This document shows positions 46,012 through 64,000 of a DNA stretch of 64,000 bases, piece by piece (the first letter of the stretch is position 1; every line of letters starts with the position of its first letter). Location of the stretch: contig JBGVKW010000059.1 in the NCBI GenBank assembly GCA_045123895.1, positions 3,360-67,359 on the forward strand. Direction: 5' to 3'. The notes beneath the pieces were generated by a model. It saw only the letters and a program-made list of their open reading frames with translations, was not told the origin of the DNA and made no database searches. Position numbers and translations under genes: made by a program. This DNA is from Agathobacter sp. Lineage in GTDB: Bacteria > Bacillota > Clostridia > Lachnospirales > Lachnospiraceae.

Positions 46012-46020
46012 GAGAAAAAG

Positions 46021-46842
46021 ATGGAACTAAGAAACAATAAAGGATTTGTCAAATGGCTGCTTATTGGAATCAGTGTTTTGTTCTTAACAGTAATGCTGAT
46101 ACTTCCACTTGTATATGTGTTATACACAGCGCTTCGCGAGGGACTTGGACCATTTGTAGCAGCTGTTACAGATAAATATGCATTAAAGTCAGTGCTTCTT
46201 ACAATTGAAGCCACAGTGATTGCTGTTGTAGTAAATACAGTTTTTGGACTTTTTGCTGCATGGACGATTACTAAATTTACTTTTAAAGGGAAAAAAATAA
46301 TATCAACACTAATCGATCTTCCACTTACAATATCTCCTGTAATAGCAGGTCTGATTTTCCTTTTGACATATGGAAGACAAAGTATTTTATATCCGGTTCT
46401 TCACAATCTAAAAATACATATTGTGTTTGCGGTACCGGGAATTGTGATGGCGACGGTTTTTGTTACTTTTCCTTTTATCTCAAGAGAACTTATTCCTGTA
46501 TTAACCTCGCAGGGAAAGGATGAGGAGGAAGCAGCAGCTCTTATGGGAGCTGGCGGTTTTAGAATTTTTAGGGAAATTACTTTTCCACATATAAAATGGG
46601 CGCTTTTATATGGAGTTGTCCTTTGTGCGGCAAGAGCGATGGGAGAGTTCGGTGCGGTATCGGTTTTATCAGGACATCTTCAGGGACTTACCAATACAAT
46701 GCCTCTTTACGTGGAACTTCTTTATCAAGGGTATGATTTTACAGGAGCGTTTGCAATGTCATCAATACTTGTGATCATGGCAGTGATTATTCTGATTCTA
46801 AGAAACGTATTGGAAAACAGAGGCAGGAAAGCAGAGGAGTAG
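46021..46842 (+). CDS. cysW: Sulfate ABC permease CysW
   Basis: DLPL.ISPVIAG, TFPF..REL, ARAMGEFGAVSV.SG. Confidence 0.93.
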   Translation: MELRNNKGFVKWLLIGISVLFLTVMLILPLVYVLYTALREGLGPFVAAVTDKYALKSVLLTIEATVIAVVVNTVFGLFAAWTITKFTFKGKKIISTLIDLPLTISPVIAGLIFLLTYGRQSILYPVLHNLKIHIVFAVPGIVMATVFVTFPFISRELIPVLTSQGKDEEEAAALMGAGGFRIFREITFPHIKWALLYGVVLCAARAMGEFGAVSVLSGHLQGLTNTMPLYVELLYQGYDFTGAFAMSSILVIMAVIILILRNVLENRGRKAEE

Positions 46843-46844
46843 AA

Positions 46845-47924: not shown

Positions 47925-47934
47925 GAGAGAAAAA

Positions 47935-49623
47935 ATGGAATTAAAAAAGCTATATACAGATGTACTTATTATAGGTGGTGGTACAGCAGGCTGCTTTGCC
48001 GCTTATACATTAGGTAAGAATAAAAATATTAATGTGCTTATTGCAGAAAAGGCGAATATTAAAAGAAGCGGATGTCTTGCCGCCGGAGTAAATGCGATTA
48101 ATGCATACATAACTGAGGGAAGAAAGCCTCAGGATTATGTGGATTACTGTAAGGCTGATGCAAAGGGAATAGTAAGAGAGGATTTACTTTTATCCTTGTC
48201 AGAAAGATTAAACCATGTGACTGAAGTGATGGAAGCGCTTGGGCTTGTGATTTTAAAGGACGAAAATGGTAAATACGTAACTAGAGGAAACAGGAACATC
48301 AAGATTAATGGTGAAAACATTAAACCGATTCTTGCAGAGGCAGCAGAAAAACAGGAAAATGTCACAGTTTTAAATCATGTAAACATTACAGATTACATAG
48401 TAAAAGACAACAGAATTTATGGAGCCTATGGGTTTGATGTAAATGAAGAAAGGGCGTATGAGATTCATGCCAAAGCAGTTCTTATTGCAACAGGTGGAGC
48501 TGCCGGTCTTTACAGACCAAATAATCCGGGCTTTTCAAGACATAAAATGTGGTATCCGCCATTTAATACCGGAGCTGGATATGCGATGGGAATAAATGCC
48601 GGAGCAGAGATGACTACTTTTGAAATGAGATTTATCGCACTTCGCTGTAAAGACACGATTGCACCAACAGGTACAATTGCGCAGGGTGTACATGCGAAGC
48701 AGATGAATTCAAAGGGACAGATATATGAGACTGACTATGGTATTGCAACCTGTGAGAGATGTTACGGAACTACAAAGGAGAATCAGGAGGGCAGAGGACC
48801 TTGTTATCTGAAAACTGATGAGATTACAAAAGAGCAGGAAAAAGATTTGTACAAGGCATACCTTAACATGGCACCGAGTCAGACTTTAAAATGGCTTGAA
48901 GCTGGAAAAGGTCCATCAGAGCAAAATGTTGAGATTGAGGGAACTGAGCCATATATAGTAGGTGGTCATACAGCAAGTGGTTACTGGGTAGATAATGGCA
49001 GAGCAACCACAATCGAAGGACTTTATGCTGCAGGAGATGTGGCAGGTGGAGCACCACAAAAATATGTAACAGGAGCTTTAGCTGAAGGAGAAATTGCAGC
49101 AGAGTCAATTATAGAATACTTGGAAAATCGAACTAATATTTCTGATGGCCATGAGTTCTTTGCTGATGAAGATAAGCTTTCAGAATATAAGAAGTATTTT
49201 GATAATGAACCTTCATTACTGTCAATTGAACAGGTTGAGGAAACAATGCAAAAAATCATGGACCAGTATGCAGGAGGAATATCAAACAGCTATCAGTTCA
49301 ATGAGAGTCAGCTTGAGCTTGCAGATGAGAAGATAAAAAGTCTTTTTGCGGTGGTTGACAAGCTTCATGCAGACGATATGGATGAGCTGCTTTCAATCTA
49401 TGAAATCAAAGACAGATTAACCTGCTGCCAAACAGTTATCGCACATCTTAAAGCCAGAAAAGAGACAAGATGGCACAGTTTTGCAGAGAATATGGATTAT
49501 CCAAACAGCAGCGACGAATGGCTTAAATACGTAAACTCTGTGAAAAAGGGCGATGATATAGAGATTATTTTTAGAGATTTAGTGACAGGAGGACAGACAT
49601 ATGAGCATAGCAATCAAAAATAA
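47935..49623 (+). CDS. aprA: Adenylylsulfate (APS) reductase flavoprotein alpha subunit
   Basis: GGGTAG, KRSGCLAAG.NAIN, WYPPFNTG, E.RF, TEPYIVGGH, GLYAAGD, RKETRW; start at RBS-supported ATG 47935. Confidence 0.85.
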   Translation: MELKKLYTDVLIIGGGTAGCFAAYTLGKNKNINVLIAEKANIKRSGCLAAGVNAINAYITEGRKPQDYVDYCKADAKGIVREDLLLSLSERLNHVTEVMEALGLVILKDENGKYVTRGNRNIKINGENIKPILAEAAEKQENVTVLNHVNITDYIVKDNRIYGAYGFDVNEERAYEIHAKAVLIATGGAAGLYRPNNPGFSRHKMWYPPFNTGAGYAMGINAGAEMTTFEMRFIALRCKDTIAPTGTIAQGVHAKQMNSKGQIYETDYGIATCERCYGTTKENQEGRGPCYLKTDEITKEQEKDLYKAYLNMAPSQTLKWLEAGKGPSEQNVEIEGTEPYIVGGHTASGYWVDNGRATTIEGLYAAGDVAGGAPQKYVTGALAEGEIAAESIIEYLENRTNISDGHEFFADEDKLSEYKKYFDNEPSLLSIEQVEETMQKIMDQYAGGISNSYQFNESQLELADEKIKSLFAVVDKLHADDMDELLSIYEIKDRLTCCQTVIAHLKARKETRWHSFAENMDYPNSSDEWLKYVNSVKKGDDIEIIFRDLVTGGQTYEHSNQK

Positions 49624-49912
49624 ATCCTGCGTAGGCTGTGGCCGATGCGCCGAGGTTTGTCCGGGAAACCTGATAAAAATCATTGATGGCAGAGCCGTGA
49701 TTAAAAAGCCAAAGGATTGCTGGGGTTGTACATCATGCTTAAAAGAATGTAATACAGGTGCGATACAGTTTTTCCTGGGAGCAGATATCGGTGGAAAAGG
49801 AAGTACACTATCAGTTGAGAAAAAAGGCGACCTTCGAATATGGACTGTTACAGGAATAGATGGAAGCAAACAGACAATAGAAATAAGCGCAAAAGAATCA
49901 AATAAATACTAA
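49601..49912 (+). CDS. aprB: APS reductase Fe-S beta subunit
   Basis: [12 protein letters not shown] and [11 protein letters not shown]; overlaps aprA. Confidence 0.8.
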
Positions 49913-49931
49913 GATTTTGGAGGAATTAGAA

Positions 49932-50837
49932 ATGAGTAATTTATCACACTTAGATGAACTCGAAGCGGAAGCTATATATATTATGAGAGAAGTAGCGGCA
50001 GAATGTGAGAAACCGGTAATGCTTTATTCCATAGGAAAAGACAGCTCGGTAATGCTTCATCTGGCACTAAAGGCGTTTTATCCTGAGAGACCACCATTTC
50101 CATTTTTACATGTAAATACAACTTGGAAATTCAAGGAGATGATTGAGTTTAGGGATCATGTGGCAGAAAAATACGGACTTGAGATGCTTGAATATATCAA
50201 TGAAGAAGGCGTTAAGCAAGGAATTAATCCTTTTGACCATGGTTCAGCTTATACAGATATCATGAAGACACATGCATTAAAACAGGCGCTTGATAAATAT
50301 GGATTTACAGCTGCCTTTGGTGGTGGACGAAGAGACGAGGAGAAATCCCGTGCCAAGGAGAGAATTTTCTCATTTAGAAATTCAGCACATGCATGGGACC
50401 CTAAAAACCAGAGACCAGAAATGTGGAAGCTTTTTAATACCAAGCTTTTTAAAGGTGAGGAGGTTCGAGTGTTCCCACTTTCAAACTGGACAGAAAAAGA
50501 TATCTGGCAGTACATACAAAGAGAAAATATTGAGATTCCATCTCTTTATTTTGCAAAAGAAAGACCAGTTATTGAGAGAGACGGAAACATCATCATGGTT
50601 GATGACGACAGATTAAAAGAAAGACTTCTTCCTGGTGAGGAGATTGTAAATAAAAAAGTACGTTTCCGTACACTAGGCTGCTATCCTCTTACAGGAGGTG
50701 TGGAGTCTGATGCAGATACATTAGATGCCATTATTGATGAGACACTCAGTGCTGTTTCAAGTGAGAGAACAACAAGAGTAATTGACAACGAAGCAGCAGG
50801 ATCAATGGAAAGACGTAAACGTGAGGGATACTTCTAG
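49932..50837 (+). CDS. cysD: Sulfate adenylyltransferase subunit 2
   Basis: [42 protein letters not shown]. Confidence 0.96.
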
Positions 50838-50851
50838 AAAGGGGAATAAAA

Positions 50852-52489
50852 ATGCAGTTACTTAAATTTATTACATGTGGAAGCGTGGATGACGGAAAGT
50901 CAACACTTATAGGACATATATTATACGATTCAAAGCTTTTATACGCAGATCAGGAAAAGGCTTTGGAATTAGATTCAAAGGTAGGAAGCCGTGAGGGTAA
51001 AATCGATTACTCACTTCTTCTCGATGGACTTATGGCAGAGCGTGAGCAGGGTATCACAATCGATGTTGCCTACAGATATTTTACAACAGACAACAGAAGC
51101 TTTATCGTAGCAGATACTCCTGGACATGAAGAATATACAAGAAACATGGCTGTAGGAGCATCATTTGCAGATTTATCAATTATTCTTATCGATGCAAAAC
51201 AGGGAGTGCTTGTTCAGACAAAGCGTCACGCAAGAATCTGTGCTCTTATGGGTATAAAATACTTTGTTTTTGCAGTAAATAAAATGGACCTTGTTGACTA
51301 TAGCCAGAGTCGTTTTGATGAAATTGAAGAACAGATTAATGCACTCAAAGAAGAACTGGGACTTGAAAATGTAGTTATCATTCCTGTATCAGCAACTGAG
51401 GGAGATAATGTAACAAAGCGTTCAGATAGAATTGACTGGTATAAAGGACCTGTTTTATTGGAATACTTAGAACAGGTGGACATAAAGGAGAACAGTCGTG
51501 AAAAAGGCTTCTATATGCCTGTACAGAGAGTATGCCGTCCAAATCATACTTTTAGAGGTTTTCAGGGACAGATTGAAAATGGAAGCATTAAAGTAGGCGA
51601 TGAAATCACAACTTTACCAAGCAACGAAAAAGCTAAAGTAAAGAGTCTTTATGTAGCATCAACAGAAGTGGTTGAAGCATCTGAAGGCCAGCCGGTAACT
51701 ATTCAGCTAGACCGTGAGGTGGATGTTTCAAGAGGCTGTGTTTTTACTGTTGATTCAGGAGTATCGGTTACAAATTCTGTTGAGGCAACACTTCTTTGGA
51801 TGGATGACGTGGAGCTTCTTGAGGGAAAGAACTTTTTTGTTAAGCTTGGAACAAAGCTTATCCCGGGAACTGTTACCAAGATAAATCACACAATTGATGT
51901 AAACACAGGAGAGAAGAAAGAGACAACAACTCTGAGTAAAAACGAGATTGCAAGATGCGAAATTCTCTTTGCTGATTCAATAGTAGTTGATTTATTTGAG
52001 AATCATAAAGCACTTGGTGAGCTTATTCTTATAGACCGAGTTACTAACATGACAGCAGCCTGCGGTGTTGTTACAGAGCTTAGAAAAAATAACACAGATC
52101 TTGGAAGTGAAATTGACAGGGAAGCAAGAAGCAACTGGAAGAGTCAGCGTTCAGTGACAGTAGAATTTAATATTGGAAAAAATGGCGTCACACATGATTT
52201 TGTTGCAAAAGTTGAAAAGGCACTTAGCAACGAGGGAAGACACACATACCTTTACGAGCCAAAGAAGGCAGATGATGTCAAGCTGGTTGTAGAGCATCTG
52301 AATAATGCTGGTATAGTTGTCCTTCTTGCAGCAAACGAAGATGTAGATACATCTGTATTTAATGAGACGAGAACTTATTACAGTAATTGGATTGAAAAGG
52401 AAGACATTACTGTAGAAGAGGCAGTAGATTATGTGTATAAGGTTTCAGGAATACATGGAGAAGTGTCTACTGTAGGAGATTATATTTAG
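50852..52489 (+). CDS. cysN: Sulfate adenylyltransferase subunit 1 (GTPase) with degenerate CysC-like tail
   Basis: CGSVDDGKST, EREQGITIDVAYRYF, DTPGH, NKMD. Confidence 0.95.
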   Translation: MQLLKFITCGSVDDGKSTLIGHILYDSKLLYADQEKALELDSKVGSREGKIDYSLLLDGLMAEREQGITIDVAYRYFTTDNRSFIVADTPGHEEYTRNMAVGASFADLSIILIDAKQGVLVQTKRHARICALMGIKYFVFAVNKMDLVDYSQSRFDEIEEQINALKEELGLENVVIIPVSATEGDNVTKRSDRIDWYKGPVLLEYLEQVDIKENSREKGFYMPVQRVCRPNHTFRGFQGQIENGSIKVGDEITTLPSNEKAKVKSLYVASTEVVEASEGQPVTIQLDREVDVSRGCVFTVDSGVSVTNSVEATLLWMDDVELLEGKNFFVKLGTKLIPGTVTKINHTIDVNTGEKKETTTLSKNEIARCEILFADSIVVDLFENHKALGELILIDRVTNMTAACGVVTELRKNNTDLGSEIDREARSNWKSQRSVTVEFNIGKNGVTHDFVAKVEKALSNEGRHTYLYEPKKADDVKLVVEHLNNAGIVVLLAANEDVDTSVFNETRTYYSNWIEKEDITVEEAVDYVYKVSGIHGEVSTVGDYI

Positions 52490-52500
52490 AGGTAAACAGC

Positions 52501-53400
52501 ATGTATGATGTTTTAATTATCGGCAGTGGTCCAGCAGGACTATCTGCCGCAATTTATTCAAAAAGAGCAAATTTAAAAGTAGCAGTTCTTGAAAAAGAAT
52601 ATGCGGGAACAGGACAGATTGCAGAGAGTGAAAAAGTTGATAACTATCCGGGATTTTCTGAGATAAGTGGTTATGATCTGGGAGAAAAATTCAGAGAACA
52701 TGCACTAAGACTGGAGGTCCCTTTCATCGAGCATGAGGCAGTAAAAATAGAAAAAAATCAGGATAAAATCTGGGAAGTAAGTCTTGAAAACAAGGAAAAG
52801 CTTTATGCAAAAACAATCATCTATGCAACAGGTGCCTCTCCAAGAAAGCTTGGTGTAAAAGGAGAAGAGCAGCTTCTTGGAAAAGGGATTTCATTTTGTG
52901 CAGTATGTGATGGAGCCTTTTATAAAGATAAAACTGTTGCAGTAATCGGTGGAGGAAATACAGCAGTAGATGATGCTCTTTTACTCTCGGACATTGCACA
53001 GAAGGTATATCTGATTCACAGAAGAGATGAATTTAGAGCATCAAAAAAAACAGTAGAACTGGTAAAGCAAAAAGAAAATGTAGAAATTATCCTTAATGCT
53101 TCTGTAAAAGAAGTTGAGGGAGAAAAGCTTGTAACAGGAATTGTCTTAGAAGATGGAAGAAAAATAGAAGTTTCAGGTATTTTTGAAGCTATCGGACAGG
53201 CACCGTCAACGAAGCTGATTTCGACACTTACCTCACTGGATGAAAGTGGATATGTAGTAGCAGATGAGGATGGAAAAACTGACAACGAGGGATTATTTGT
53301 GGCAGGCGATGTACGAACCAAGAAACTTCGTCAGGTTGTGACAGCAGTATCCGACGGAGCCAATGCTGTTTCAAGCGTAGAGGAGTATTTGTATTCATAA
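52501..53400 (+). CDS. trxB: Thioredoxin-disulfide reductase
   Basis: GSGPAG, CAVCDG, GGGNTA, AGD. Confidence 0.9.
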   Translation: MYDVLIIGSGPAGLSAAIYSKRANLKVAVLEKEYAGTGQIAESEKVDNYPGFSEISGYDLGEKFREHALRLEVPFIEHEAVKIEKNQDKIWEVSLENKEKLYAKTIIYATGASPRKLGVKGEEQLLGKGISFCAVCDGAFYKDKTVAVIGGGNTAVDDALLLSDIAQKVYLIHRRDEFRASKKTVELVKQKENVEIILNASVKEVEGEKLVTGIVLEDGRKIEVSGIFEAIGQAPSTKLISTLTSLDESGYVVADEDGKTDNEGLFVAGDVRTKKLRQVVTAVSDGANAVSSVEEYLYS

Positions 53401-53685
53401 ACTTTTCACTTATATATGATTTGTTGAGGGATGGACAGAAAGGCAGCCGGGACCCCTTATTATCTATATTTTTGACGAGCCGTGTGCAAGTTATATGCTG
53501 ATTATCAGCTTATGATTGCCCGGGAAAGCCTCGTTTAAGCGTAGCGCGTTTTGGCTTTCCCGCGGCATAATAAACATAGCTGATAACAGCATTTACTTGC
53601 ACTAGGCTAAGGAAACTTTATAGATAATAAGGGGTCCCGGCTGCGTTTCAGTCCGTCCCTATATAAAAATATAAGTGACAAGTTT
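53399..53685. repeat. ~285-bp nested imperfect palindrome (long hairpin element)
   Basis: 42-bp arms 53427-53468 / 53619-53660 with 3 mismatches, plus inner and outer paired blocks. Confidence 0.85.
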
Positions 53686-53687
53686 GT

Positions 53688-53787
53688 TATAAATAATATT
53701 TATAACTCATCATAAGTAAACAGTATTGGACGAAGGAAAAAATATGTCCTATAATTCTATACAGATAAAACCCATAGAGATACTAGG
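53688..53787 (+). promoter_or_regulatory. metY operon promoter with the same two motifs as the sulfate operon
   Basis: TATAA-N7-TTATA 53688-704; TTGGAC 53726-31, 18 bp, TATAAT 53750-55; CCCA-N9-TAGG 53771-87. Confidence 0.6.
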
Positions 53788-53807
53788 AAATGTAAAGAGA
53801 GGGAAAT

Positions 53808-55040
53808 ATGAATTTTAACACTAGTTTATTACATGCTGGTGTAGACAGGAATGAATGCAAAGGAGCGACCCTTACTCCTATCTATCAGTCAAGTGCATTT
53901 GAACAGTCCACGGCAGCAGATTTGGAAAATATTTTTAATAATAAATCTCCGGGATACTGTTATACACGAGTAGGTAATCCAACAATTACTGCTTTTGAAA
54001 ACAGAATCACAAAGCTTGAGAATGGAGTGGCAACTATAGCGTGCGCTTCAGGAATGGCAGCAATATTTAATTCCATTACCAATATTGTTCAAAGCGGAAA
54101 TGAGATTATCTCAAGTGCCAGTCTCTATGGTGGAACGATAGATTTGTTTACAGATTTGGAGGCTTTTGGAATCACAACCAGATATGTCGAGAACAACAAC
54201 TGGGAGGAGATAGAAGCAGCCTTTAATGAAAATACCAGAGCTTTTTTTGCAGAGACAATTGGAAATCCAAGACTTGATGTAACTGATGTAGAAAAGCTTG
54301 CGGATATCTGTCATAAGCATAATGTTCCACTTATTGTAGACAATACAGTTGCAACTGCTTATCTTTATAAGCCATTAGAGCACGGAGCTGACATCGTAGT
54401 AAATTCTTCTTCCAAATATATAAACGGAAGCAGTAACTCAATCAGCGGAGTGTTGACGGATTCCGGTAAGTTCAAATGGGATAAGGAAAAATATCCGCTT
54501 TTGGCACCATATGCAAAATTCGGACCATTTGCTTTTACAGCAAAGCTTCGCAATGGATTATTTAGAAATACAGGTGCCTGTCTGGCACCGCAGAATGCAT
54601 TTTTAAATCAGCTGGGACTTGAAACTTTGGGACTTCGAATGGAAAGACAGTGTAGTAATGCAATAAAATTGGCGAGCTGGTTAGACAGTGAATATCCGGA
54701 ATTTGAAGTGAATTTTCCGGGATTAAAGAGCAGTCCGTGGTATGAAATAGCAGACAGACAGTTTAAGAATGGATATGGTGCAATCATTACTTTAAGAGTA
54801 AAGACCAAGGAAAATGCATTTAAGCTTATTGATAATCTAAAGATTGCGTACAAGCTATCCAATATTGGAGATACCAAAACACTGGTAATTCATCCAGCAT
54901 CAACCATCAGTCTTCACAGCACGAAAAAGCAGCAGGAAGAGGCAGGAGTATTTGATGATCTTATCAGAATAAGTGTTGGTATAGAAGATGTGGATGATTT
55001 GATCGAAGATTTTAAACAGGCCATTTTGAAATTGAATTAG
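53808..55040 (+). CDS. metY: O-acetylhomoserine sulfhydrylase (PLP, Cys/Met metabolism family)
   Basis: PIYQSS, YTRVGNPT, LYGGT, VDNT, SSSKYING, IHPAST, RISVGIEDVDDLIEDF. Confidence 0.85.
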   Translation: MNFNTSLLHAGVDRNECKGATLTPIYQSSAFEQSTAADLENIFNNKSPGYCYTRVGNPTITAFENRITKLENGVATIACASGMAAIFNSITNIVQSGNEIISSASLYGGTIDLFTDLEAFGITTRYVENNNWEEIEAAFNENTRAFFAETIGNPRLDVTDVEKLADICHKHNVPLIVDNTVATAYLYKPLEHGADIVVNSSSKYINGSSNSISGVLTDSGKFKWDKEKYPLLAPYAKFGPFAFTAKLRNGLFRNTGACLAPQNAFLNQLGLETLGLRMERQCSNAIKLASWLDSEYPEFEVNFPGLKSSPWYEIADRQFKNGYGAIITLRVKTKENAFKLIDNLKIAYKLSNIGDTKTLVIHPASTISLHSTKKQQEEAGVFDDLIRISVGIEDVDDLIEDFKQAILKLN

Positions 55041-55076
55041 ATAGTTATTGGAAAGTTAAGGAGGAATAAAGGAATT

Positions 55077-55970
55077 ATGGCAGATAATAACGTGGAAAAG
55101 AAGAAAGTTGATTATGCTTCGTTAAAAAAAGGTGGATTCATGAGACAGAAACAGAAAAATAATTTTTCGCTTCGTCTTGCAGTTGTTGGAGGAAATATGA
55201 CAGCAGAGCAGCTTAAGGTTGTGGCAGATGTGGCAGAAAAATATGGACATGGATATGTGCACATGACATCACGCCAGAGTGTCGAAATTCCATTTATTCA
55301 ATTTGATGATGTGGAAGATGTTAGAGATGTACTGGCCCAGGGTGGTGTTAAGCCGGGTGTTTGTGGACCAAGAGTAAGAACAGTTACAGCCTGTCAGGGC
55401 TCAGAGATTTGTCCTAGTGGATGTATTGATACATATACTCTTGCAAAGGAATTTGACGAGAGATACTTTGGAAGAGAGCTTCCACATAAGTTTAAGTTTG
55501 GTGTAACAGGATGCCAGAACAACTGTCTTAAGACCGAAGAAAATGATTTCGGAGTAAAGGGTGGAATGGTTGTAAACTGTGATACTGAAAGCTGTATCGG
55601 TTGTAGTGTATGTGCTAAGGCATGTCGTGAAGGTGCCATCAGTATGGTAGATGGAAAACCTGTATTAGAGGAGAGCAAATGTAATAATTGTGCAAGATGT
55701 GTTAAGAGCTGTCCTGTAGATGCATGGAAAGGCGAGCCGGGATATATCGTATCCTTTGGTGGAACATTTGGAAACAAGATTTATAAGGGAGAAGAACTTC
55801 TTCCAATCATAAAAGATAAAGAGACATTATTTAGAGTTGCAGATGCTGCAATAGGATTTTTTGAAGATTATGCAAACGCAGGAGAGAGATTTAGAGCAAC
55901 ACTTCAAAGAGTTGGAGATGATGAGTTAAAGAAAAGAGTTCAGGCAGCATACGAAGGAAAAGCAGTTTAA
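55077..55970 (+). CDS. Half-size siroheme sulfite reductase with 2x[4Fe-4S] ferredoxin insertion (AsrC/Sir-like)
   Basis: HMTSRQ, CQGSEIC (C-X5-C), KFKFGVTGCQNNC (C-X3-C), CIGCSVCAKAC, CNNCARCVKSC. Confidence 0.88.
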   Translation: MADNNVEKKKVDYASLKKGGFMRQKQKNNFSLRLAVVGGNMTAEQLKVVADVAEKYGHGYVHMTSRQSVEIPFIQFDDVEDVRDVLAQGGVKPGVCGPRVRTVTACQGSEICPSGCIDTYTLAKEFDERYFGRELPHKFKFGVTGCQNNCLKTEENDFGVKGGMVVNCDTESCIGCSVCAKACREGAISMVDGKPVLEESKCNNCARCVKSCPVDAWKGEPGYIVSFGGTFGNKIYKGEELLPIIKDKETLFRVADAAIGFFEDYANAGERFRATLQRVGDDELKKRVQAAYEGKAV

Positions 55971-55997
55971 TAAAAATGAAATGAGAGGAATAGAAAA

Positions 55998-56249
55998 ATG
56001 GCAGATTTAGATTTTAAAATAGATGATGAGGTGGATATCACAGATAAGGTTTGTCCACTTACTTTTGTAAAAGCGAAGGTTACACTTGATGAATTAGATG
56101 ACGGAGAGGTGCTCGCAATCAGAATGAATGATGGAGAGCCGGTACAGAATGTTCCAAGAAGTATAAAAGAGGAGGGACATCAGATTCTTAAGTTAGCAGA
56201 CAACGAAGATGGAACTTATACACTTTATGTGAGAAAGGTGGAAGATTAG
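55998..56249 (+). CDS. TusA/SirA family sulfurtransferase
   Basis: VDITDKVCPLTFVKAK, DGEVL. Confidence 0.9.
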   Translation: MADLDFKIDDEVDITDKVCPLTFVKAKVTLDELDDGEVLAIRMNDGEPVQNVPRSIKEEGHQILKLADNEDGTYTLYVRKVED

Positions 56250-56250
56250 T

Positions 56251-56568
56251 ATGGCAGCAAGAATTTCAGGAGATGAATTTGAGGCAAAAGTAATAAATGC
56301 TGATAAGCCGGTTCTTGTAGATTTTTACTCAGATTCCTGTGTGGCATGTAAAAGACTTGCACCGGTGCTTGGACAGGCTGAGGATGATTTTGAAGACAGT
56401 ATTTATGTTTATAAGGTAAATACCAATTTTGATGCTGAACTGGCACAGAAATATGAGATAACAGCAAATCCTACACTTTTATTTGTAAAAGGCGGACAGG
56501 TGATAGACAGAAAGGTCGGAGCATTAAGACCTGATGAATTGAATTCATGGATTGAAGAAAATATTTAA
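56251..56568 (+). CDS. Thioredoxin family protein
   Basis: VLVDFYSDSCVACK, ANPTLLF. Confidence 0.85.
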   Translation: MAARISGDEFEAKVINADKPVLVDFYSDSCVACKRLAPVLGQAEDDFEDSIYVYKVNTNFDAELAQKYEITANPTLLFVKGGQVIDRKVGALRPDELNSWIEENI

Positions 56569-56589
56569 TTTAGAAAAAGGAGATATATC

Positions 56590-56796
56590 ATGACTATTAC
56601 AGTTGCAGGTGTAAAAAAAGAATATAAGGATGGACTTACTCTTCCTGAGTTAATTGAGGCAGAAAATGTTGAGATGCCAGAGTATGTTTCAGTTTCTATT
56701 AATGAAGAATTCGTTGAGAGTGACAAGAAGGAGAGCACTGTTTTAAAAGAGGGAGACAATGTTGAATTCTTATACTTCATGGGAGGAGGACAGTAA
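56590..56796 (+). CDS. ThiS/HcyS-like sulfur carrier with capped C-terminus (..MGGGQ)
   Basis: Ubiquitin-fold size; LKEGDNVEFLYFMGGGQ. Confidence 0.9.
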   Translation: MTITVAGVKKEYKDGLTLPELIEAENVEMPEYVSVSINEEFVESDKKESTVLKEGDNVEFLYFMGGGQ

Positions 56797-56798
56797 AA

Positions 56799-57635
56799 AT
56801 GGCAATGACAGATGAACAGATTGAACGTTATTCACGCCATATCATCTTAAAAGAAGTCGGAGCAAAAGGGCAGAAAAAGCTTTTAAATGCAAAGGTTCTT
56901 ATTATTGGTGCAGGCGGACTTGGAGCACCGGCAGCTATGTATCTTGCTGCGGCAGGTGTTGGAACAATTGGAATTGTTGATGCAGATGAGGTTGACCTTT
57001 CTAATTTACAGAGACAGATTATTCACGGAACTAACGATATAGGAAAGGCAAAAGTAAAATCAGCAAAAGAGACAATTAATGCAATGAATCCTGATGTGAC
57101 AGTTAATACATACAGAATGTTCGTGGATTCTACAAATATCAGAGAGCTTATCAGAGAATACGATTTTGTAATTGATGGAACAGACAATTTCCCAGCCAAG
57201 TTCCTTATAAATGATGCCTGTGTAATGGAGAAAAAACCATTTTCACATGCCGGTATCATTCGTTTCAAGGGACAGCTTATGACGTATGTGCCAGGAGAAG
57301 GCCCATGCTACAGATGTGTATTTAAAAATCCACCACCAAAGGATGCAGTTCCAACATGTAAGCAGGCCGGTGTAATCGGAGCAATGGGAGGAGTGATTGG
57401 CTCACTTCAGGCTATGGAAGCAATTAAATACATAATAGGAGTAGGTGAGCTATTAACAGGAAAGCTTCTTACATATGATGCGCTTACAATGGAATTTCAC
57501 ACAGTTAAGCTTCCGAAGAACACAAGTGGATGTGCAGTCTGTGGAGACAATCCTACTATCGTTGAGCTTATTGATTACGAGCAGGAGGTTTGTGAGGAGA
57601 CTGCAGGAAGGTTTGAGCAAAGAGACAAACAGTAA
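56799..57635 (+). CDS. ThiF/MoeB/HcyF-like adenylyltransferase (E1-like)
   Basis: RYSRH, GAGGLG, SNLQRQ, PCYRC, CAVC. Confidence 0.93.
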   Translation: MAMTDEQIERYSRHIILKEVGAKGQKKLLNAKVLIIGAGGLGAPAAMYLAAAGVGTIGIVDADEVDLSNLQRQIIHGTNDIGKAKVKSAKETINAMNPDVTVNTYRMFVDSTNIRELIREYDFVIDGTDNFPAKFLINDACVMEKKPFSHAGIIRFKGQLMTYVPGEGPCYRCVFKNPPPKDAVPTCKQAGVIGAMGGVIGSLQAMEAIKYIIGVGELLTGKLLTYDALTMEFHTVKLPKNTSGCAVCGDNPTIVELIDYEQEVCEETAGRFEQRDKQ

Positions 57636-57650
57636 TTAGAGGGATAAAAA

Positions 57651-58085
57651 ATGGGAATAATCAGAATTGAGTATCATCTGTATGATGATATTGTAAGATA
57701 TGCAAAGGAAAATCTTCCCGAGGAGGCTTGCGGACTTATTGCAGGAATAGAGGATGAAGAAGGAAACTGTGAAATCAAAAAAGTATATTTTCTTGAGAAC
57801 ACAGACCACTCCAACGAGCATTTTACACTAAGTCCCAAGGATCAGATGACAGCAATAAAGGATATGAGGGAGAATTCCCTCAAACCTTTAGGCAACTGGC
57901 ATTCTCACCCAGAGTCTCCATCAAGACCATCAGTAGAAGATGTTAAGCTTGCATATGACAAGAATGCAAGGTATCTGATTTTATCATTGATGGCTGAGAA
58001 TCCTGTTCTTAATGCTTTCCATATTGAAAACGGAGAATGGGAAAAAGAAGATTTACGAATTTATTCAAAAGAATATTTTTTCTAG
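57651..58085 (+). CDS. JAB/MPN+ (M67) metalloprotease, HcyD/Mec-like
   Basis: PEEACG, WHSHP...PS.ED. Confidence 0.92.
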   Translation: MGIIRIEYHLYDDIVRYAKENLPEEACGLIAGIEDEEGNCEIKKVYFLENTDHSNEHFTLSPKDQMTAIKDMRENSLKPLGNWHSHPESPSRPSVEDVKLAYDKNARYLILSLMAENPVLNAFHIENGEWEKEDLRIYSKEYFF

Positions 58086-58136: not shown

Positions 58137-58712
58137 ATGGCATATTTTCCAATGTATGTTGATATAACAAATAAGGACTGCCTGATTGTAGGCGGTGGAA
58201 AAGTAGCACTTCGCAAGGTTGAAGTGCTACTTGATTTTAAGGCAAAAGTTTGTGTTGTAGCGCAGGAGGTCTGTGAGCAGATAAAGGCCTTAGAGGATGA
58301 AGGAAAAATTACGGTACTTGAGAGAGAATTTATAGATAAGGATATAGAAAAACGTTTTCTTGTGGTTGCTGCAACGAATCAAAAGGAGTTAAACCATAGG
58401 ATTTCAATACTGGCGTCACAAAAAAATATTCCAGTTAATGCAGTTGATCAAATAGAAGACTGCTATTTTATTTTTCCAGCGTATGTAAAGGAGAAGGAGC
58501 TTGTGGCTTCTTTTTCAAGCAGTGGAAAAAGCCCTGTTACAGTACAGTATCTAAAGCAAAAGGAAAAAGAGATACTGACTCCTAGACTTGGAGAGATAAA
58601 TGATTATCTTGGGGCTATTAGACAGGAAATCATAGAAAAATATGATGATGAAAAGCAAAGAAGAGCGGCGTTTAAAGAAATATTGGAAAAAGCCCTTTCG
58701 GAAGAAATATAA
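58137..58712 (+). CDS. Precorrin-2 dehydrogenase/sirohydrochlorin ferrochelatase (SirC/Met8/CysG N-terminal type)
   Basis: YFPMYVDI, VGGGKVALRK, VNAVD, FIFPA, SSSGKSP. Confidence 0.88.
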   Translation: MAYFPMYVDITNKDCLIVGGGKVALRKVEVLLDFKAKVCVVAQEVCEQIKALEDEGKITVLEREFIDKDIEKRFLVVAATNQKELNHRISILASQKNIPVNAVDQIEDCYFIFPAYVKEKELVASFSSSGKSPVTVQYLKQKEKEILTPRLGEINDYLGAIRQEIIEKYDDEKQRRAAFKEILEKALSEEI

Positions 58713-58731
58713 AACAGGAAACAGGTAAAAA

Positions 58732-59634
58732 ATGCATTATATTATTGGAACAAGAGGTTCAAAACTTGCACTTTTGCAGACTGAATCGGTAATGAAAAAA
58801 TTAAAAAAAGCTTATCCTGATGATTCTTTTTCTATAAAAATCATAAAGACAACAGGTGATAAAAATCAGATTCAGGCTTTGGATAAGATAGGTTCAAAAG
58901 GTCTTTTCACAGATGAAATAGAGAAGGAACTTTTATCGGGAGAGATTGCCATGGCTGTCCATTCCATGAAGGATATGCCAGATACCCCACAGAAAGGGCT
59001 TACTTTTTCAAAAGCATGGAAGCGGGAAGATCCAAGAGATGTGTTAGTTTTAAAAAATCATAAAAGTCTTGATGAACTTCCAATAGGTGCGACAATTGCT
59101 ACGGGAAGTAAGAGAAGAGCATATCAGATAAAGAAGATTCGACCGGACATAAATATCGTGGGAATACGGGGGAATGTTGATACCAGAATTAGAAAATTAC
59201 GGGATGAAAATGAAAATCTCGATGGTATCGTACTAGCAGCAGCAGGCTTAAATAGGATTGGAAGAGCGGATGAGATTACACAGTACTTAGAGCCTGACGA
59301 AATGATTCCAGCGCCTTCACAGGGGACACTCGCCCTTGAGGTCAAAGAGGATAATGTAACATTGCTTGAGAAGCTTAATGCATTATCAGATAATCAAAGT
59401 CAGCTTGCAGTAGACGCAGAGAGAGGTTTTTTAAAGGCAATAGGAGGAGATTGTCATTTACCAATCGGTGCATACCTCAATGAACAAAAAGAATTGATGG
59501 CACTATTTGGAGATGAAAATGGTTCGGTGCTCGCAAGGACTGTTGTTAAGCTTTCTGGCGAGTCAAAGGAAGAAATAGAAAACGCAGTACAAAAGGCTGT
59601 AAAGGAAATAAAACTACAGCTTGAGGATAAATAG
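58732..59634 (+). CDS. hemC: Hydroxymethylbilane synthase
   Basis: GTRGSKLAL, AVHSMKD, RGNVDTR, PAPSQG, GGDCH. Confidence 0.95.
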   Translation: MHYIIGTRGSKLALLQTESVMKKLKKAYPDDSFSIKIIKTTGDKNQIQALDKIGSKGLFTDEIEKELLSGEIAMAVHSMKDMPDTPQKGLTFSKAWKREDPRDVLVLKNHKSLDELPIGATIATGSKRRAYQIKKIRPDINIVGIRGNVDTRIRKLRDENENLDGIVLAAAGLNRIGRADEITQYLEPDEMIPAPSQGTLALEVKEDNVTLLEKLNALSDNQSQLAVDAERGFLKAIGGDCHLPIGAYLNEQKELMALFGDENGSVLARTVVKLSGESKEEIENAVQKAVKEIKLQLEDK

Positions 59635-59635
59635 G

Positions 59636-61156
59636 ATGACAGGAAAAGTTACGCTTATTGGAGCAGGACCGGGTAATCCGGATTTGCTAACCATTAAAGG
59701 AAAAGAAAAAATTGAACAGGCGGATTGCATAATCTATGACAGACTTGCATCACCAAAGCTTTTAGGCTATGCAAAAAAGGACTGTGAATTTATATATGTT
59801 GGAAAAGAGAACCACCATCATACAATGAAGCAGGACGATATTAATGAACTTCTGTATCAGAAGGCACTTTTGGGGAAAGATATTGTCCGATTGAAGGGCG
59901 GAGACCCTTATGTGTTTGGAAGAGGTGGAGAGGAGGCTCTTTTTCTCATAGAAAGAAATATTGAAGTGGAAGTGGTTTCCGGAATAAGCTCTTCCATTGC
60001 GGCACTTGCTGATGCCGGTATTCCAATTACCCACAGAGGTCTGTCGAAGGGCTTTCAGGTTATTACCGGACACAGTAGAAAGGATAAGCCGGCAGAGATT
60101 GATTATTCACAGCTGATGGACCCCACAGTGACGTATGTGTTTTTGATGGGGCTTTCCCATGTAAGGGAAATTGCAAACGGATTAATTGAAGCGGGAAGAG
60201 ACAAAAATACTCCTGCAGCAGTTGTATCAAACGGAACCACTGCCAGACAGAGAAAGTCTGTAGGAACACTTGAAAATATTGCGGAGCTTGTGGAAAGAGA
60301 CCAGCTGCCGTTACCTGCCATTATCGTTGTGGGGGATGTTGTTACTTTATCAGATAAACTGAATTTTTTTGAGAAGCGAGTATTATTTGGGCAAAAGTTT
60401 CTGGTTCCGTATATTGAGTCCTTTAAATTTGATTTTTCAAAGGGGATTATTCCTGAAAAAAAGGAGGATTACTTTGATTCTAAGCTTGAAGTGACCCTTA
60501 GGAAAAATGGGGCACATGTAGATACTCTTTTGATAGGAAAAATCAAACCTGTTGAAATAGAAAGGTCTGTATTTTTAAATCTACTAAAGGCAGACTGGTT
60601 TATTTTTACAAGTCAGAATGCTGTAAATTCCTTTTTCTGGAATCTAAGGAAAAATGGTCTTGATGCAAGGTCAATTGGGGATGCAAAGATTGCAGTTGTT
60701 GGAAGCCGTACCAATCAGTGTCTGGAGAAATTTGGGCTGTGTGCAGATTTGATTCCGGACAAACAGACAGCAAAAGATTTGTGCGAAGCATTGTTGGATT
60801 TGATTAATGACAACAAAAAAATTGTTTTTTTCTCAGGAAAAGAATCCAGTCCAGAAATAGAGGCGATGTTATCAGATAATAATGAACTAACAAAACAGGT
60901 ATGCTATGTAAATGAAGTCGTCTCGAATGAGGGAACTGTAATTCATTATGAGGATTATGATGGAGTTGTTTTCACAAGTGCATCATCTGTAAGAAGGTCG
61001 CTTAGTCTTTCGGATGGAACAAGACCAAAGAAGGTTTTTTCTATTGGACCGAGTTGTTCTATGGAAGTGGAAAAGCATGGAATTACTGAGTTTGAAGAGG
61101 CAAAAGAGCACAATTATAAGGGCTTAATTGACATGGTTATTGGTAGGAATAAATAA
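59636..61156 (+). CDS. cobA: Uroporphyrinogen-III C-methyltransferase / synthase fusion (CobA-HemD)
   Basis: GAGPG, RLKGGDP..FGRG, FTSQNAV, FTSASSV. Confidence 0.9.
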   Translation: MTGKVTLIGAGPGNPDLLTIKGKEKIEQADCIIYDRLASPKLLGYAKKDCEFIYVGKENHHHTMKQDDINELLYQKALLGKDIVRLKGGDPYVFGRGGEEALFLIERNIEVEVVSGISSSIAALADAGIPITHRGLSKGFQVITGHSRKDKPAEIDYSQLMDPTVTYVFLMGLSHVREIANGLIEAGRDKNTPAAVVSNGTTARQRKSVGTLENIAELVERDQLPLPAIIVVGDVVTLSDKLNFFEKRVLFGQKFLVPYIESFKFDFSKGIIPEKKEDYFDSKLEVTLRKNGAHVDTLLIGKIKPVEIERSVFLNLLKADWFIFTSQNAVNSFFWNLRKNGLDARSIGDAKIAVVGSRTNQCLEKFGLCADLIPDKQTAKDLCEALLDLINDNKKIVFFSGKESSPEIEAMLSDNNELTKQVCYVNEVVSNEGTVIHYEDYDGVVFTSASSVRRSLSLSDGTRPKKVFSIGPSCSMEVEKHGITEFEEAKEHNYKGLIDMVIGRNK

Positions 61157-61158
61157 TT

Positions 61159-61241
61159 CCTACTAAAATGATAGGAAACTATTGATAAGCGAATATTTTA
61201 GTGATAGAATACCGAGTGTGATATAAATCACACTCGGTATT
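61159..61241 (+). promoter_or_regulatory. CCTA-N9-TAGG motif and a perfect 15-bp inverted repeat containing TGTGA-N6-TCACA
   Basis: TTCCTA-ctaaaatga-TAGGAA 61157-77; AATACCGAGTGTGAT/ATCACACTCGGTATT 61208-41. Confidence 0.6.
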
Positions 61242-61278
61242 GTTGTATATGTAATAAACGAAATAAAGGGAAGAACAA

Positions 61279-62247
61279 ATGATTAGAACAAGAAGACTAA
61301 GAAATAGTGAAAAACTAAGAAGTTTGGTGAGGGAGAATGCGGTCAGAATTGATGAACTTATTTACCCGGTTTTTGTTGTTGAAGGCAAAAATCAGATAAA
61401 TCCAATTGAGTCAATGCCTGGAATTTGCCAGTATTCCCTGGACCATTTGCTTGAAGAAATAGGACGAGCAGTAGAGCTTGGAATAAATGCTGTGCTTTTA
61501 TTTGGCATTCCGCTACATAAGGATGAGGTTGGAAGCTCGGCATATGCAGAGGATGGAATCATCCCAAGAGCAATTGATTTGATAAAGAATGAGTATCCGG
61601 ATCTGATTGTAATTGCAGATGTATGTTTGTGTGAATACACATCCCATGGTCACTGCGGACTCATAAAAGATGGTACAATTTTAAATGATGAGACACTTCC
61701 TCTTTTGGCAAAGGCGGCAGTGGTATATGCACAGGCGGGTGCTGATATTATTGCACCAAGTGACATGATGGATTTTCGTGTTGCGGCCATAAGAGATGCA
61801 TTGGATGAGGCTGATTGCAAGGATGTTCCAATTCTTTCATATAGTGCTAAATTTGCATCTGGATACTATGGACCGTTTAGGGATGCTGCTCATTCTGCTC
61901 CGGGTTTTGGAGATAGAAAAACATACCAGATGGATCCGGCAAATGGAAAAGAGGCACTTCGTGAGGTGGAGGAAGACATATTAGAGGGTGCTGATTTTAT
62001 TATTGCAAAACCAGCTCTTGCATATATGGATGTGATAAAGGAAATTGCCTTAAATTACAATATTCCAATTGTTGCATACAACGTAAGTGGTGAGTATGCC
62101 ATGGTAAAGGCAGCAGCACAAAACGGCTGGATAGATGAGAAAAAAATTGTTATGGAAAATATGGTAGGACTTAAGAGAGCCGGCGCTACTGCTATTATTA
62201 CATATCATGCATTAGATGTAGCAAGATGGCTTAGAGAGGAACAATAG
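61279..62247 (+). CDS. hemB: Porphobilinogen synthase (ALA dehydratase)
   Basis: RTRRLR, CLCEYTSHGHC, PSDMMD, YGPFRDA, YQMDP, AYNVSGEY. Confidence 0.96.
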   Translation: MIRTRRLRNSEKLRSLVRENAVRIDELIYPVFVVEGKNQINPIESMPGICQYSLDHLLEEIGRAVELGINAVLLFGIPLHKDEVGSSAYAEDGIIPRAIDLIKNEYPDLIVIADVCLCEYTSHGHCGLIKDGTILNDETLPLLAKAAVVYAQAGADIIAPSDMMDFRVAAIRDALDEADCKDVPILSYSAKFASGYYGPFRDAAHSAPGFGDRKTYQMDPANGKEALREVEEDILEGADFIIAKPALAYMDVIKEIALNYNIPIVAYNVSGEYAMVKAAAQNGWIDEKKIVMENMVGLKRAGATAIITYHALDVARWLREEQ

Positions 62248-63348
62248 ATGACATTAGTTTTAGAAAATAACATATGGGTTTTGTGGGGGATAATAACTTT
62301 TGCAGTTGCACTTAGTGTATGGCTTGAAAGTCGTTTCAAGTGGGCGGCTAAGCTTTCGGCACTTGTAATTGTGCTAGTGCTTGGAATTGTCTTATCGAAT
62401 GTGAGAGTGATTCCAAAATCCTCAGGGGTATATGATGTGGTAACTGATTATCTGGTTCCGCTTGCCCTTGCGTTTTTGTTGTTTAGAGCAGACCTTAAAA
62501 AAATCTGTAAAGAATCTGGAAGGATGCTTATAGCTTTTCTGATAGGGGCTTTGGGAACTGTTGTAGGAAGTTTCGTTGCGTATTTAGCTTTTTACAAGGC
62601 ATTAAGAGTACTCCCGGGACTTACAGCTATGTTTACAGGTACATACACCGGCGGAAGCGTAAATTTTGCAGCACTTAGTGTGTCCTTTGATGTGCCGAAA
62701 AAAATGGTTTCTGCGGCTACTATCGCAGATAATCTGAATATGGCGGTCTACTTTTTTATACTATTATCAATTCCTGTGAAAATGAGTATTGATAAAAAAA
62801 CAGAATCGCAGCCTAAAGAAGCTGAGAAAAAAGAGATTTCACTCACAAGTCTTGCAATTGGAATAGCTTCTGCCGTAATAATTGTTGCAGCCTCGCAGAA
62901 ACTAGGAAACATTATTGGTAATCAGTATTTGTGGATAACTACTTTATCTGTAGCATGTGCCACACTATTTCCAAATGTTTTTGGTAAAATTGCAGGACTT
63001 CAGGAACTTGGAACATTTTTTATTTACTGCTTTATGTTTGTAATAGGAGCACCGGCATCTATTAGTGAAATTATAAAAAATTCACCATATCTATTGGTGT
63101 TTGCAATGATAATTGTTCTATTTAATATGATTTTTACCTTTGCTGGTGGAAAATTATTAAAGTTTGACAGAAAAACCTTGATAATTGCATCAAATGCAAA
63201 TGTGGGTGGTCCTACAACGGCCGCCAGTATGGCAATTGCAAAGGGGTGGGATGAACTTGTAGGACCCGCACTTTTGATTGGAAGTTTAGGATATGTAATA
63301 GGTAATTATCTCGGACTTATGGTAGGTTATGTCTGTGGTTTGTTTTAA
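62248..63348 (+). CDS. DUF819 family multi-pass membrane protein (putative transporter)
   Basis: LSNVRVIP, LVPLALAFLLFRADL, TYTGGSVNF, ASNANVGGPTTA..MA..KGW. Confidence 0.85.
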   Translation: MTLVLENNIWVLWGIITFAVALSVWLESRFKWAAKLSALVIVLVLGIVLSNVRVIPKSSGVYDVVTDYLVPLALAFLLFRADLKKICKESGRMLIAFLIGALGTVVGSFVAYLAFYKALRVLPGLTAMFTGTYTGGSVNFAALSVSFDVPKKMVSAATIADNLNMAVYFFILLSIPVKMSIDKKTESQPKEAEKKEISLTSLAIGIASAVIIVAASQKLGNIIGNQYLWITTLSVACATLFPNVFGKIAGLQELGTFFIYCFMFVIGAPASISEIIKNSPYLLVFAMIIVLFNMIFTFAGGKLLKFDRKTLIIASNANVGGPTTAASMAIAKGWDELVGPALLIGSLGYVIGNYLGLMVGYVCGLF

Positions 63349-63398: not shown

Positions 63399-64000
63399 AT
63401 GAAACACAGTGTGCTGGATGATATTTCAGAAAGCTGTTTGGAAAAGCTTAAAGAAAATGGGGAAATCCTTGAGCTTAAAAAGGGTGAGCAAATTTTTGAT
63501 GAAAATGAAAGTGATAATCTGTATTTTGTCCTAAAAGGATACGTGTCAATTTACAGAGCAAGTCGTTACGGAGAAGACAGAATAATCTTTATCTGTGCAA
63601 AAAACGAGATTCTAAATGAACTGGTTGTAACCTGTGGAATTTCATGTGTCTTAGCAAAAGCTGTAAGTGATGTGTGTCTCTTACAGGTCAGAGGAAATCT
63701 GATAAAGCAGATTATGGCAGAGCATAAAGATTTTTCAGAGAAGCTTTTGGAATCATTAAGCAGTAAAACAAGAAGATTGTATCATCAGACGGGAAATGAC
63801 AGTGGAGTTTATCCACTTAAAAAGCATGTGGCAGTAAAGATATGGAAGCTTGCAAAAGACAATGGTGTAAACAACCATGAGGGAAGAAAAGTTGATTTTG
63901 AGGTATCAGTAAAAATGCTTTCTATGATGCTTGGCGCAAAAAGGGAATCTGTATCAAGGGAGGTGTCAGACTTAAGGAGAATGGGGATAGTTTCCTTTGA
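63399..64000 (+). CDS. Crp/Fnr family regulator (3' end outside window)
   Basis: Not in ORF track. AAGGAG RBS; LYFVLKGYVSIYR cNMP-binding fold; MLGAKRESVSRE HTH. Confidence 0.85.
   Translation, partial: MKHSVLDDISESCLEKLKENGEILELKKGEQIFDENESDNLYFVLKGYVSIYRASRYGEDRIIFICAKNEILNELVVTCGISCVLAKAVSDVCLLQVRGNLIKQIMAEHKDFSEKLLESLSSKTRRLYHQTGNDSGVYPLKKHVAVKIWKLAKDNGVNNHEGRKVDFEVSVKMLSMMLGAKRESVSREVSDLRRMGIVSF

Follow-up and report, generated by a model that had tools for sequence, protein, structure and literature searches.

The synthesis of both vitamin B12 and siroheme starts from 5-aminolevulinate (ALA), which mimics Gly-Gly and enters other cells through dipeptide carriers. In E. coli and Salmonella the dipeptide permease Dpp reportedly acts as an ALA importer, and PEPT/POT carriers import ALA as well. 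Salvage of ALA has been proven in C. scindens, C. sporogenes and T. primitia (Shelton et al., PMC6461909) and in C. difficile (bioRxiv 10.1101/772582), according to the accessible parts of both sources, which name no ALA transporter for the salvaging Clostridia. The organism analysed here, Agathobacter sp. (Lachnospiraceae; GCA_045123895.1, contig JBGVKW010000059.1, positions 3,360-67,359 of the forward strand, a stretch of 64,000 nt called the window below), resembles these salvagers in lacking hemA and hemL, in having hemBCD and downstream cobamide genes and in belonging to the host-associated Clostridia. Unlike them, it has a candidate carrier of the DUF819 family and a regulator in linkage with hemB, and its pathway supplies siroheme to sulfate assimilation as well. 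We interpret hemB-DUF819-crp as an ALA-salvage unit in which a dipeptide carrier has been repurposed for ALA import and give this reading a probability of roughly 70 %; transport is inferred, as there are no uptake data.

The hem locus and the absence of known ALA-synthesis genes

The open reading frames and protein families agreed with those described in an earlier note on this DNA, including the DUF819 ATG, which starts at the base right after the hemB TAG (Table 1). The same note held that sirC-hemC-cobA/hemD-hemB cover every step from ALA to siroheme. All these genes are present, but the last part of the statement is incompletely shown, as iron insertion by this SirC/Met8-type protein is unproven; a CbiK chelatase is encoded on another contig of the genome. 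The siroheme consumer is the sulfite reductase inside the upstream sulfate assimilation block. A pathway serving siroheme alone would be too narrow a description, because the only hemB, hemC and hemD genes of the genome also feed B12. Contig C44 carries a cobalamin operon controlled by a B12 riboswitch, and the corrin-ring and nucleotide-loop genes found include cbiK, cbiD, cbiC, cbiP, cbiB, cobS and a cbiL-like gene, the full set not being enumerated. Of the genes expected of an ALA salvager, hemB, hemC, hemD and cobA are present and intact. The GC content of the hem locus was not unusual, no plasmid-borne copies were found, and a riboswitch before hemB was rejected, Rfam giving no match anywhere in the window.

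Table 1. Features of the hem locus and its surroundings, in positions of the window
Feature	Position	Strand	Basis or remarks
Sulfate assimilation block, upstream of the hem genes: sulfate ABC importer, AprA/B-like reductase, cysD, cysN, trxB, O-acetylhomoserine sulfhydrylase, siroheme-type sulfite reductase (55077-55970), tusA, trx, thiS (56590-), moeB, JAMM protease	44130..58085	+	Some names taken from the translations and from Pfam calls on orthologous loci
sirC / CysG N-terminal-type precorrin-2 dehydrogenase	58137..58712	+	PF13241; TIGR01470 161 bits (cut-off 62); ferrochelatase activity not assumed
hemC, hydroxymethylbilane synthase	58732..59634	+	TIGR00212 308 bits (cut-off 164)
cobA-hemD fusion	59636..61156	+	PF00590 and PF02602; TIGR01469 above cut-off
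Promoter-like site before hemB: TTGATA, 17 nt, TG-extended TAGAAT	61182..61210	+	10/12 match
Palindrome with 15-bp arms; core 61217-61232 is a perfect Crp-type box, TGTGA-N6-TCACA	61208..61241		Over the expected transcription start
hemB, porphobilinogen synthase, consumes ALA, single copy	61279..62247	+	NF006762 495 bits (cut-off 297)
DUF819 secondary carrier with two re-entrant hairpins, candidate ALA importer	62248..63348	+	PF05684 290 bits; model; context
Crp/Fnr-family regulator, 219 aa, extending 58 nt past the window end	63399..64000	+	PF00027 and PF13545

The earlier note had reported hemA and hemL as missing from the window, and their absence proved to extend to the whole genome (Agathobacter-like, 2.8 Mb, 99.44 % complete), in which a hidden copy elsewhere was ruled out by five HMMs and tblastn. 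Across the genome GlutR_dimer had no match, GlutR_N none even at E<=1, and the hemA model TIGR01035 reached at best 26 bits against a cut-off of 210. The best match of the hemL model TIGR00713 scored 128 bits (cut-off 527; true hemL genes reach about 590), that of the ALA synthase profile 18 bits, and with HemA and HemL of relatives as queries tblastn found nothing beyond weak matches to Rossmann-fold proteins and class III aminotransferases. The genome is thus unable to make ALA by any known route. Also missing are both families of transporters for which ALA uptake is known, Dpp/Opp and POT, as neither the DUF819 protein nor the rest of the genome matched SBP_bac_5 (the Dpp/Opp binding protein) or PTR2 (POT). 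PepD is present; homologues of M19, DdpX and the epimerase were not found in the genome with the queries used.

The DUF819 family and its hem-linked clade

The protein encoded behind hemB matches PF05684 with 289.9 bits (gathering cut-off 27) over model positions 2-374 of 379. Its AF2 model (pLDDT 91) resembles CitS (Foldseek E 2.8e-7; VIA Z 25.7, rmsd 4.5, 352 aligned, 15 % identity) and AspT (Z 20.2), and judging by this model it is a carrier of the CitS/AspT type, with the CPA/AT re-entrant fold and an inverted repeat. DUF819 had been assigned to the CitS-type CPA/AT fold class before (PMC8396727). CitS (2-HCT), AspT and GltS share with it the predicted fold with two Gly-rich re-entrant hairpins, and differ in substrate context and in sequence: identity is 15 %, and PF05684 is the only family matched, with no hit to PF03390 of the 2-HCT family proper. 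A common fold tells neither the substrate nor the direction of transport, AspT being an exchanger. Searches of the literature for DUF819, PF05684, COG5505 and yjcL and for ALA importers found no functional assignment or substrate, and the Atlas returned only DUF819 clusters.

The family spans bacteria and plants, and most of its genes adjoin dipeptidases or epimerases. Neighbours of related DUF819 genes encode M19, D-Ala-D-Ala (M15), PepD, M18 or S15 peptidases or a dipeptide epimerase, the peptidase-linked genes including ones linked to Ala-Glu epimerase and to PepD; an M15-DUF819 pair is known from Neisseria (PMC12671195). Since most members are linked to peptidases and DUF819 genes also occur in genomes without hemB (16/162 in Lachnospiraceae), we rejected ALA import as a function of the whole family. 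The expectation of the earlier note that the locus would give the family a function was too wide; ALA import, if real, would have arisen secondarily in a single clade.

The hem-linked DUF819s form this clade (support 100/100), nested among dipeptidase-linked ones, with sister groups that are mostly M19-linked. Its members are 43-50 % identical to the peptidase-linked M19/M15 group and have conserved the hairpin motifs and the Asp-Asn pair at 161-162, whereas the conserved inter-repeat loop motif is gone, substitutions A38, I159, N164, C261 and R308 are fixed, and the partner is hemB in place of a peptidase. The gene lies directly 3' of hemB in 11 of the 13 clade contexts, across different gene orders, and none of the 13 has a peptidase gene beside it. 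Most members are in or near sulfate assimilation operons, two contexts (L063/L153 and L039/L040) being in the sulfate operon without adjacent hemB, with the gene preceding sirC-hemC in L039/L040. Two loci (L059 and L065) are stand-alone hemB-DUF819-crp units away from sulfur genes, and another (L068) adjoins a cbiL-like gene. The linkage is therefore recurrent, being found in 11 lineages and in one independent recruitment: in genome G227 an unrelated DUF819 stands beside hemB, and its monophyly with the main clade was rejected (p-AU 1.2e-5). Essentially no convergent residues were shared with the main clade, the G227 protein having almost none of the clade-specific ones.

In the same genus, hemL follows directly after hemB in all ten other sampled hemB-positive genomes, and none of 27 sampled genomes has a DUF819 match. 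The five inspected loci have the order hemB-hemL-hemA, with HemB 74-78 % identical, so that DUF819 occupies the place that hemL-hemA take in prototrophs of the genus. The DUF819-linked HemBs likewise form one clade (SH-aLRT 99) nested among hemL-linked HemBs. Intact hemA or hemL was found in 0 of 10 genomes with a clade or hemB-adjacent DUF819, and two clade carriers retain a frameshifted, deleted hemL remnant behind hemB. One lineage is losing both partners, as hemB is frameshifted or halved and DUF819 has a helix-removing deletion or a frameshift.

Across Lachnospiraceae, DUF819 occurs in 10 of 11 genomes with hemB and without hemA and hemL, against 8 of 78 prototrophs, none of which has it next to hemB. 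We used hemL as the marker because the hemA HMM search had overlooked two genes, a real hemA in G134 and one at a contig end in G010; these two genomes and G146 were reassigned to the prototrophs. In six of the ten co-occurrences the DUF819 does not belong to the hem-linked clade; most of these six are linked to peptidases and several come from related genomes, and the family-level p-values are therefore inflated. Clostridia-wide the association is weak (4/12 other hemB-positive, hemL-negative genomes vs 5/47, p 0.07). None of these 12 genomes has DUF819 next to hemB and eight have no DUF819, so that there are other routes to ALA, one of which could also be at work here; at class level, a universal role of DUF819 in ALA import was rejected.

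The promoter region and the Crp-family regulator

It had gone unnoticed that hemB-DUF819-crp has its own promoter-like site and the only perfect Crp box of the 2.8-Mb genome. Matches to the promoter pattern are by themselves at chance level (16 found, 18 expected); the site is supported by an identical spacing from -10 to box in L059, L065 and L154, read by eye. In L059 and L065, the remaining hemB-DUF819-crp loci, a 10/10 box likewise precedes hemB, and about 50 further hemB loci reach no more than 8/10. The palindrome is probably a repressor operator over the transcription start, a prediction without binding data. It scored as a hairpin of the terminator type as well, though its U tail is weak, and of its sequence only the Crp core is conserved, the arms not; a role as terminator is not excluded.

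The Crp/Fnr protein, third gene of the unit, has its closest homologues in the crp genes of L065 and L059. Its cNMP and HTH_Crp_2 domains and the co-occurrence of the TGTGA-N6-TCACA site with the gene qualify it, by sequence, as a Crp/Fnr regulator with a cognate box. The cNMP-binding and HTH_Crp_2 domains, an RE-x-x-S-R helix (KRESVSR here) and the TGTGA-N6-TCACA site are shared with Crp/Fnr regulators of anaerobes (HcpR/Dnr-like), from which it differs in that the box lies over the start site of its own operon, a repressor geometry. Its relatives control bioY or adjoin a nirC-asrABC-like cluster, and since a close relative that has the box of L059 acts on a bioY gene, the regulator cannot count as evidence for ALA in particular.

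Competing explanations and comparison with known systems

The absence of hemA and hemL together with the recurrent linkage supports the proposal of the earlier note that ALA is salvaged through DUF819, uptake itself being inferred only. In an ancestor, the carrier may have brought in small dipeptides as substrates of a dipeptidase encoded next to it. One lineage would then have lost this partner and occupied the hemL-hemA slot behind hemB, and may now import external ALA for HemB, probably ion-coupled. Such import could have made hemA and hemL dispensable, with the Crp-family protein probably repressing hemB-DUF819-crp from the box over the transcription start.

The protein might still be a general dipeptide importer, e.g. 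of Cys-Gly or another sulfur-containing dipeptide for the sulfate/methionine island, with ALA as a side substrate or arriving by another route. The dipeptidase-linked, mostly M19-linked sister groups would fit this, as would the frequent location in or near sulfate assimilation operons, two members heading one without visible hemB, and a genome that has PepD but no other recognised peptide importer. We consider it unlikely, given that no clade member has a peptidase neighbour, that hemB-DUF819(-crp) also occurs as a unit by itself, away from sulfur genes, and that DUF819 decays with hemB and was not found in same-genus prototrophs. Even less probable seem import of a precursor that is masked or comes later in the pathway (porphobilinogen, or ALA within a peptide or ester) and export of excess intermediates. 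An intact, tightly coupled hemB is sensible only with ALA as the input, no hydrolase accompanies DUF819, and an exporter should be commonest in producers, yet no prototroph has the pair; on the other side, the fold family includes exchangers such as AspT, the L039/L040 gene precedes sirC-hemC rather than hemB, and several biological samples contained less than 100 nM free ALA, as given in the available part of Shelton et al. (PMC6461909).

We give still less credence to inherited hitch-hiking, with ALA made by a biosynthetic route that has escaped recognition or taken up by an unrelated amino-acid permease. The main clade does have a single origin, and many hemL-less Clostridia manage without DUF819; the pair nevertheless survives several rearrangements, arose twice, co-decays and coincides with hemL decay, and the hemA/hemL-less Clostridia that were tested needed external ALA, as far as the accessible portions of the sources go. 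Import of ALA by the hem-linked clade thus remains our preferred reading, and DUF819 is a strong, testable candidate for the unidentified ALA importer of gut anaerobes.

If this is true, a substrate would be assigned to part of an uncharacterised transporter family, the gene would be a marker for ALA cross-feeding in gut metagenomes, and a dipeptide carrier would have taken over the operon slot of the biosynthetic genes that it made redundant. More speculatively, the Crp-box unit may offer an ALA- or tetrapyrrole-responsive switch. A wider version, which we hold tentatively and at slightly worse than even odds, is that the clade represents the first dedicated high-affinity ALA importer, with more than one origin from dipeptide carriers and a regulated hemB-importer-repressor unit replacing hemL-hemA, and that possession of DUF819 let several Lachnospiraceae lineages drop ALA synthesis and cross-feed in the gut. 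The likeness to Dpp of E. coli and Salmonella and to PEPT/POT would lie in the uptake of ALA by a carrier that originally served for dipeptides. Dpp and POT are ABC or MFS housekeeping peptide systems that take ALA on the side, whereas DUF819 is a single gene of the CPA/AT fold and apparently dedicated.

ALA auxotrophy and gene content of the locus

The genes sirC, hemC, cobA-hemD, hemB and DUF819 (58137-63348) were borne out in both the coordinates and the families given by the earlier note, and the DUF819 start codon is indeed the base right after the hemB stop. The set closes a sulfate assimilation block holding a siroheme-type sulfite reductase. Among public genomes the best match, at 99 %, is one of Agathobacter sp. 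Region 53808-58085 encodes OAH sulfhydrylase, sulfite reductase, tusA, thiS (56590), moeB and a JAMM protease, which we take to fit a protein-thiocarboxylate route from sulfur to homocysteine. The absence of hemA and hemL, claimed earlier for the window only, holds genome-wide. In HMM searches of the 99.44 % complete assembly, glutamyl-tRNA reductase, GSA aminomutase and ALA (5-aminolevulinate) synthase were all absent, and tblastn with proteins of relatives found none of the ALA-synthesis genes either. By gene content, the organism is an ALA auxotroph. The genes hemB, hemC and cobA-hemD are single-copy and the cobalamin operon with its B12 riboswitch lies on a separate contig, so the locus feeds both siroheme and cobamide. 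The CbiK of that operon is a lipoprotein-like protein of 632 aa with a weak NEAT match.

Coordinates of features in the window and in compared loci
Feature	Coordinates	Context
Promoter-like site	61182-61210	Window, between cobA-hemD and hemB
Palindrome, 15-bp arms	61217-61232 (core)	Window, between cobA-hemD and hemB
DUF5058 membrane protein, second membrane protein, M20 peptidase	L110:674-3414	After hemB in G065 (hemB present, hemA and hemL absent)
EamA-family transporter and YitT-type gene	L115:9584-10540	Directly downstream of hemB in G173, without hemA/hemL
hemL pseudogene remnants	L157:8084-8586; L156:4205-4392	G254 and G255, directly behind hemB
Insertion with transposase-like ORF	L126:7359-10751	Splits cobA-hemD in G519
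bioY-crp pair	L154:3342-4631	Perfect Crp box after -10-like element
hcp (prismane protein)	L037:6906-8501	After hemB-DUF819
SirC-HemC fusion, 491 aa	L039:9262-10737	Directly 3′ of clade DUF819
Cobalamin riboswitch	L145:4709-4905	Ahead of cbiK-btu-cbiP-cob operon, genome of the window, contig C44

Replacement of hemL-hemA by DUF819

The comparison within the genus covered 27 further genomes. In all ten that have hemB, hemL directly follows it, and five inspected loci read hemB-hemL-hemA; the window DUF819 found no match in any of the 27, many of which are incomplete. In a quick tree, the HemBs linked to DUF819 group as a single clade (SH-aLRT 99) that lies within those linked to hemL. No intact hemA or hemL was found in the ten genomes with a hemB-adjacent DUF819 or one from the hem-linked clade of the window protein (completeness known for four, 98-100 %). 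In G254 and G255, the hemL remnants carry frameshifts, a stop and a large internal deletion. DUF819 has replaced hemL-hemA in this slot. In another lineage hemB (frameshifted or halved) and its DUF819 (frameshifted or minus one helix) have decayed together.

DUF819 was counted across 251 Lachnospiraceae genomes: it is present in 10 of the 11 with hemB but neither hemA nor hemL (9/10 excluding our genome), in 8 of 78 ALA prototrophs and in 16 of 162 genomes without hemB; it adjoins hemB in 4/11 versus 0/78 prototrophs. The p-values are inflated by kinship, and collapsing to lineages leaves about 5/6. In 339 Clostridia the figures were 4/12 for hemL-less genomes with hemB, 5/47 for prototrophs and 36/279 without hemB (p 0.07), and no DUF819 was hemB-adjacent. 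Given this weak class-level link, DUF819 is one route among several; the genes behind hemB in G065 could be a different peptide-type carrier for ALA. The hemL-less G519 of the class sample has three DUF819 paralogs (L133, L134, L135), none beside hemB, with an M19 gene, a peptidase-like gene and an epimerase as neighbours.

Substrate of the DUF819 carrier

The window protein is a clean PF05684 member. In structure comparison its AlphaFold2 model (pLDDT 91) fits two known carriers, CitS, a Na+/citrate symporter (Z 25.7), and AspT, which exchanges Asp and Ala (Z 20.2); this fold was expected from PMC8396727. The predicted fold shows a secondary carrier and gives neither substrate nor direction; another imported precursor, or export, is compatible with it and remains improbable in our view. 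Outside the clade, DUF819 genes neighbour M19 and D-Ala-D-Ala dipeptidases, dipeptide epimerase, PepD, and M18, M14 and S15 peptidases, and we therefore infer that dipeptide import is the ancestral role. ALA mimics Gly-Gly and is carried by dipeptide permeases. Retained import of dipeptides or sulfur peptides would agree with this ancestry and with the sulfate block; no peptidase neighbour was found in 13 clade contexts, and we consider it unlikely.

The clade (about 28 protein clusters, 53-100 % identity) is monophyletic (100/100) and nested among M19/M15-linked proteins. The hemB linkage noted earlier at one locus recurs, with DUF819 directly 3′ of hemB in 11 of 13 distinct clade contexts. 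These include full siroheme operons, the order hemB-DUF819-sirC-hemC-cobA, a neighbouring cbiL-like gene and stand-alone hemB-DUF819-crp (L059, L065); in L039/L040 DUF819 precedes a sirC-hemC fusion, and one copy heads a sulfate operon near a contig end. An independent hemB-DUF819 pair, away from other hem genes, stands in G227 (98 % complete, without hemA/hemL). This DUF819 belongs to another subtree and has almost none of the residues fixed in the clade; a tree joining it to the main clade was rejected (p-AU 1.2e-5). Hitch-hiking could explain a single linkage; the linkage is recurrent and convergent, and we hold this explanation to be very improbable. We favour import of ALA by the window DUF819, with a probability of about 0.7; substrate, direction and coupling ion are inferred.

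Regulation and comparison with known systems

The earlier note had missed the promoter-like site and the Crp-type box before hemB. The core of the palindrome fits TGTGA-N6-TCACA perfectly, and no other perfect box occurs in the genome. An equally perfect core precedes hemB in exactly two other lineages, both with hemB-DUF819-crp, and some 50 other hemB loci match at 8/10 positions at most. The box is conserved and operator-like. In each perfect case it lies 4-7 bases past a -10-like element, a repressor geometry from which repression is only inferred. The closest relatives of the window Crp are the crp genes of those two lineages; next in line is a Crp encoded behind bioY, where the box is again perfect. 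This Crp subfamily seems repeatedly attached to cofactor-uptake genes. Another relative (L155) precedes nirC-asrABC-like genes, which, with hcp at L037, hints at a response of the family to nitrite or NO. The hemB-DUF819-crp unit appears separately regulated, and the signal need not be ALA.

Neither an Opp/Dpp binding protein nor a POT carrier was found in the genome and, lacking ALA synthesis genes as well, the organism therefore fits the ALA-salvager type. It matches the salvagers of PMC6461909 and bioRxiv 10.1101/772582, for which the accessible parts of these papers demonstrate ALA dependence and name no transporter. The literature searched describes no dedicated ALA importer of CPA/AT fold that has a regulator of its own. 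ALA salvage is already known, as is ALA entry via dipeptide carriers.
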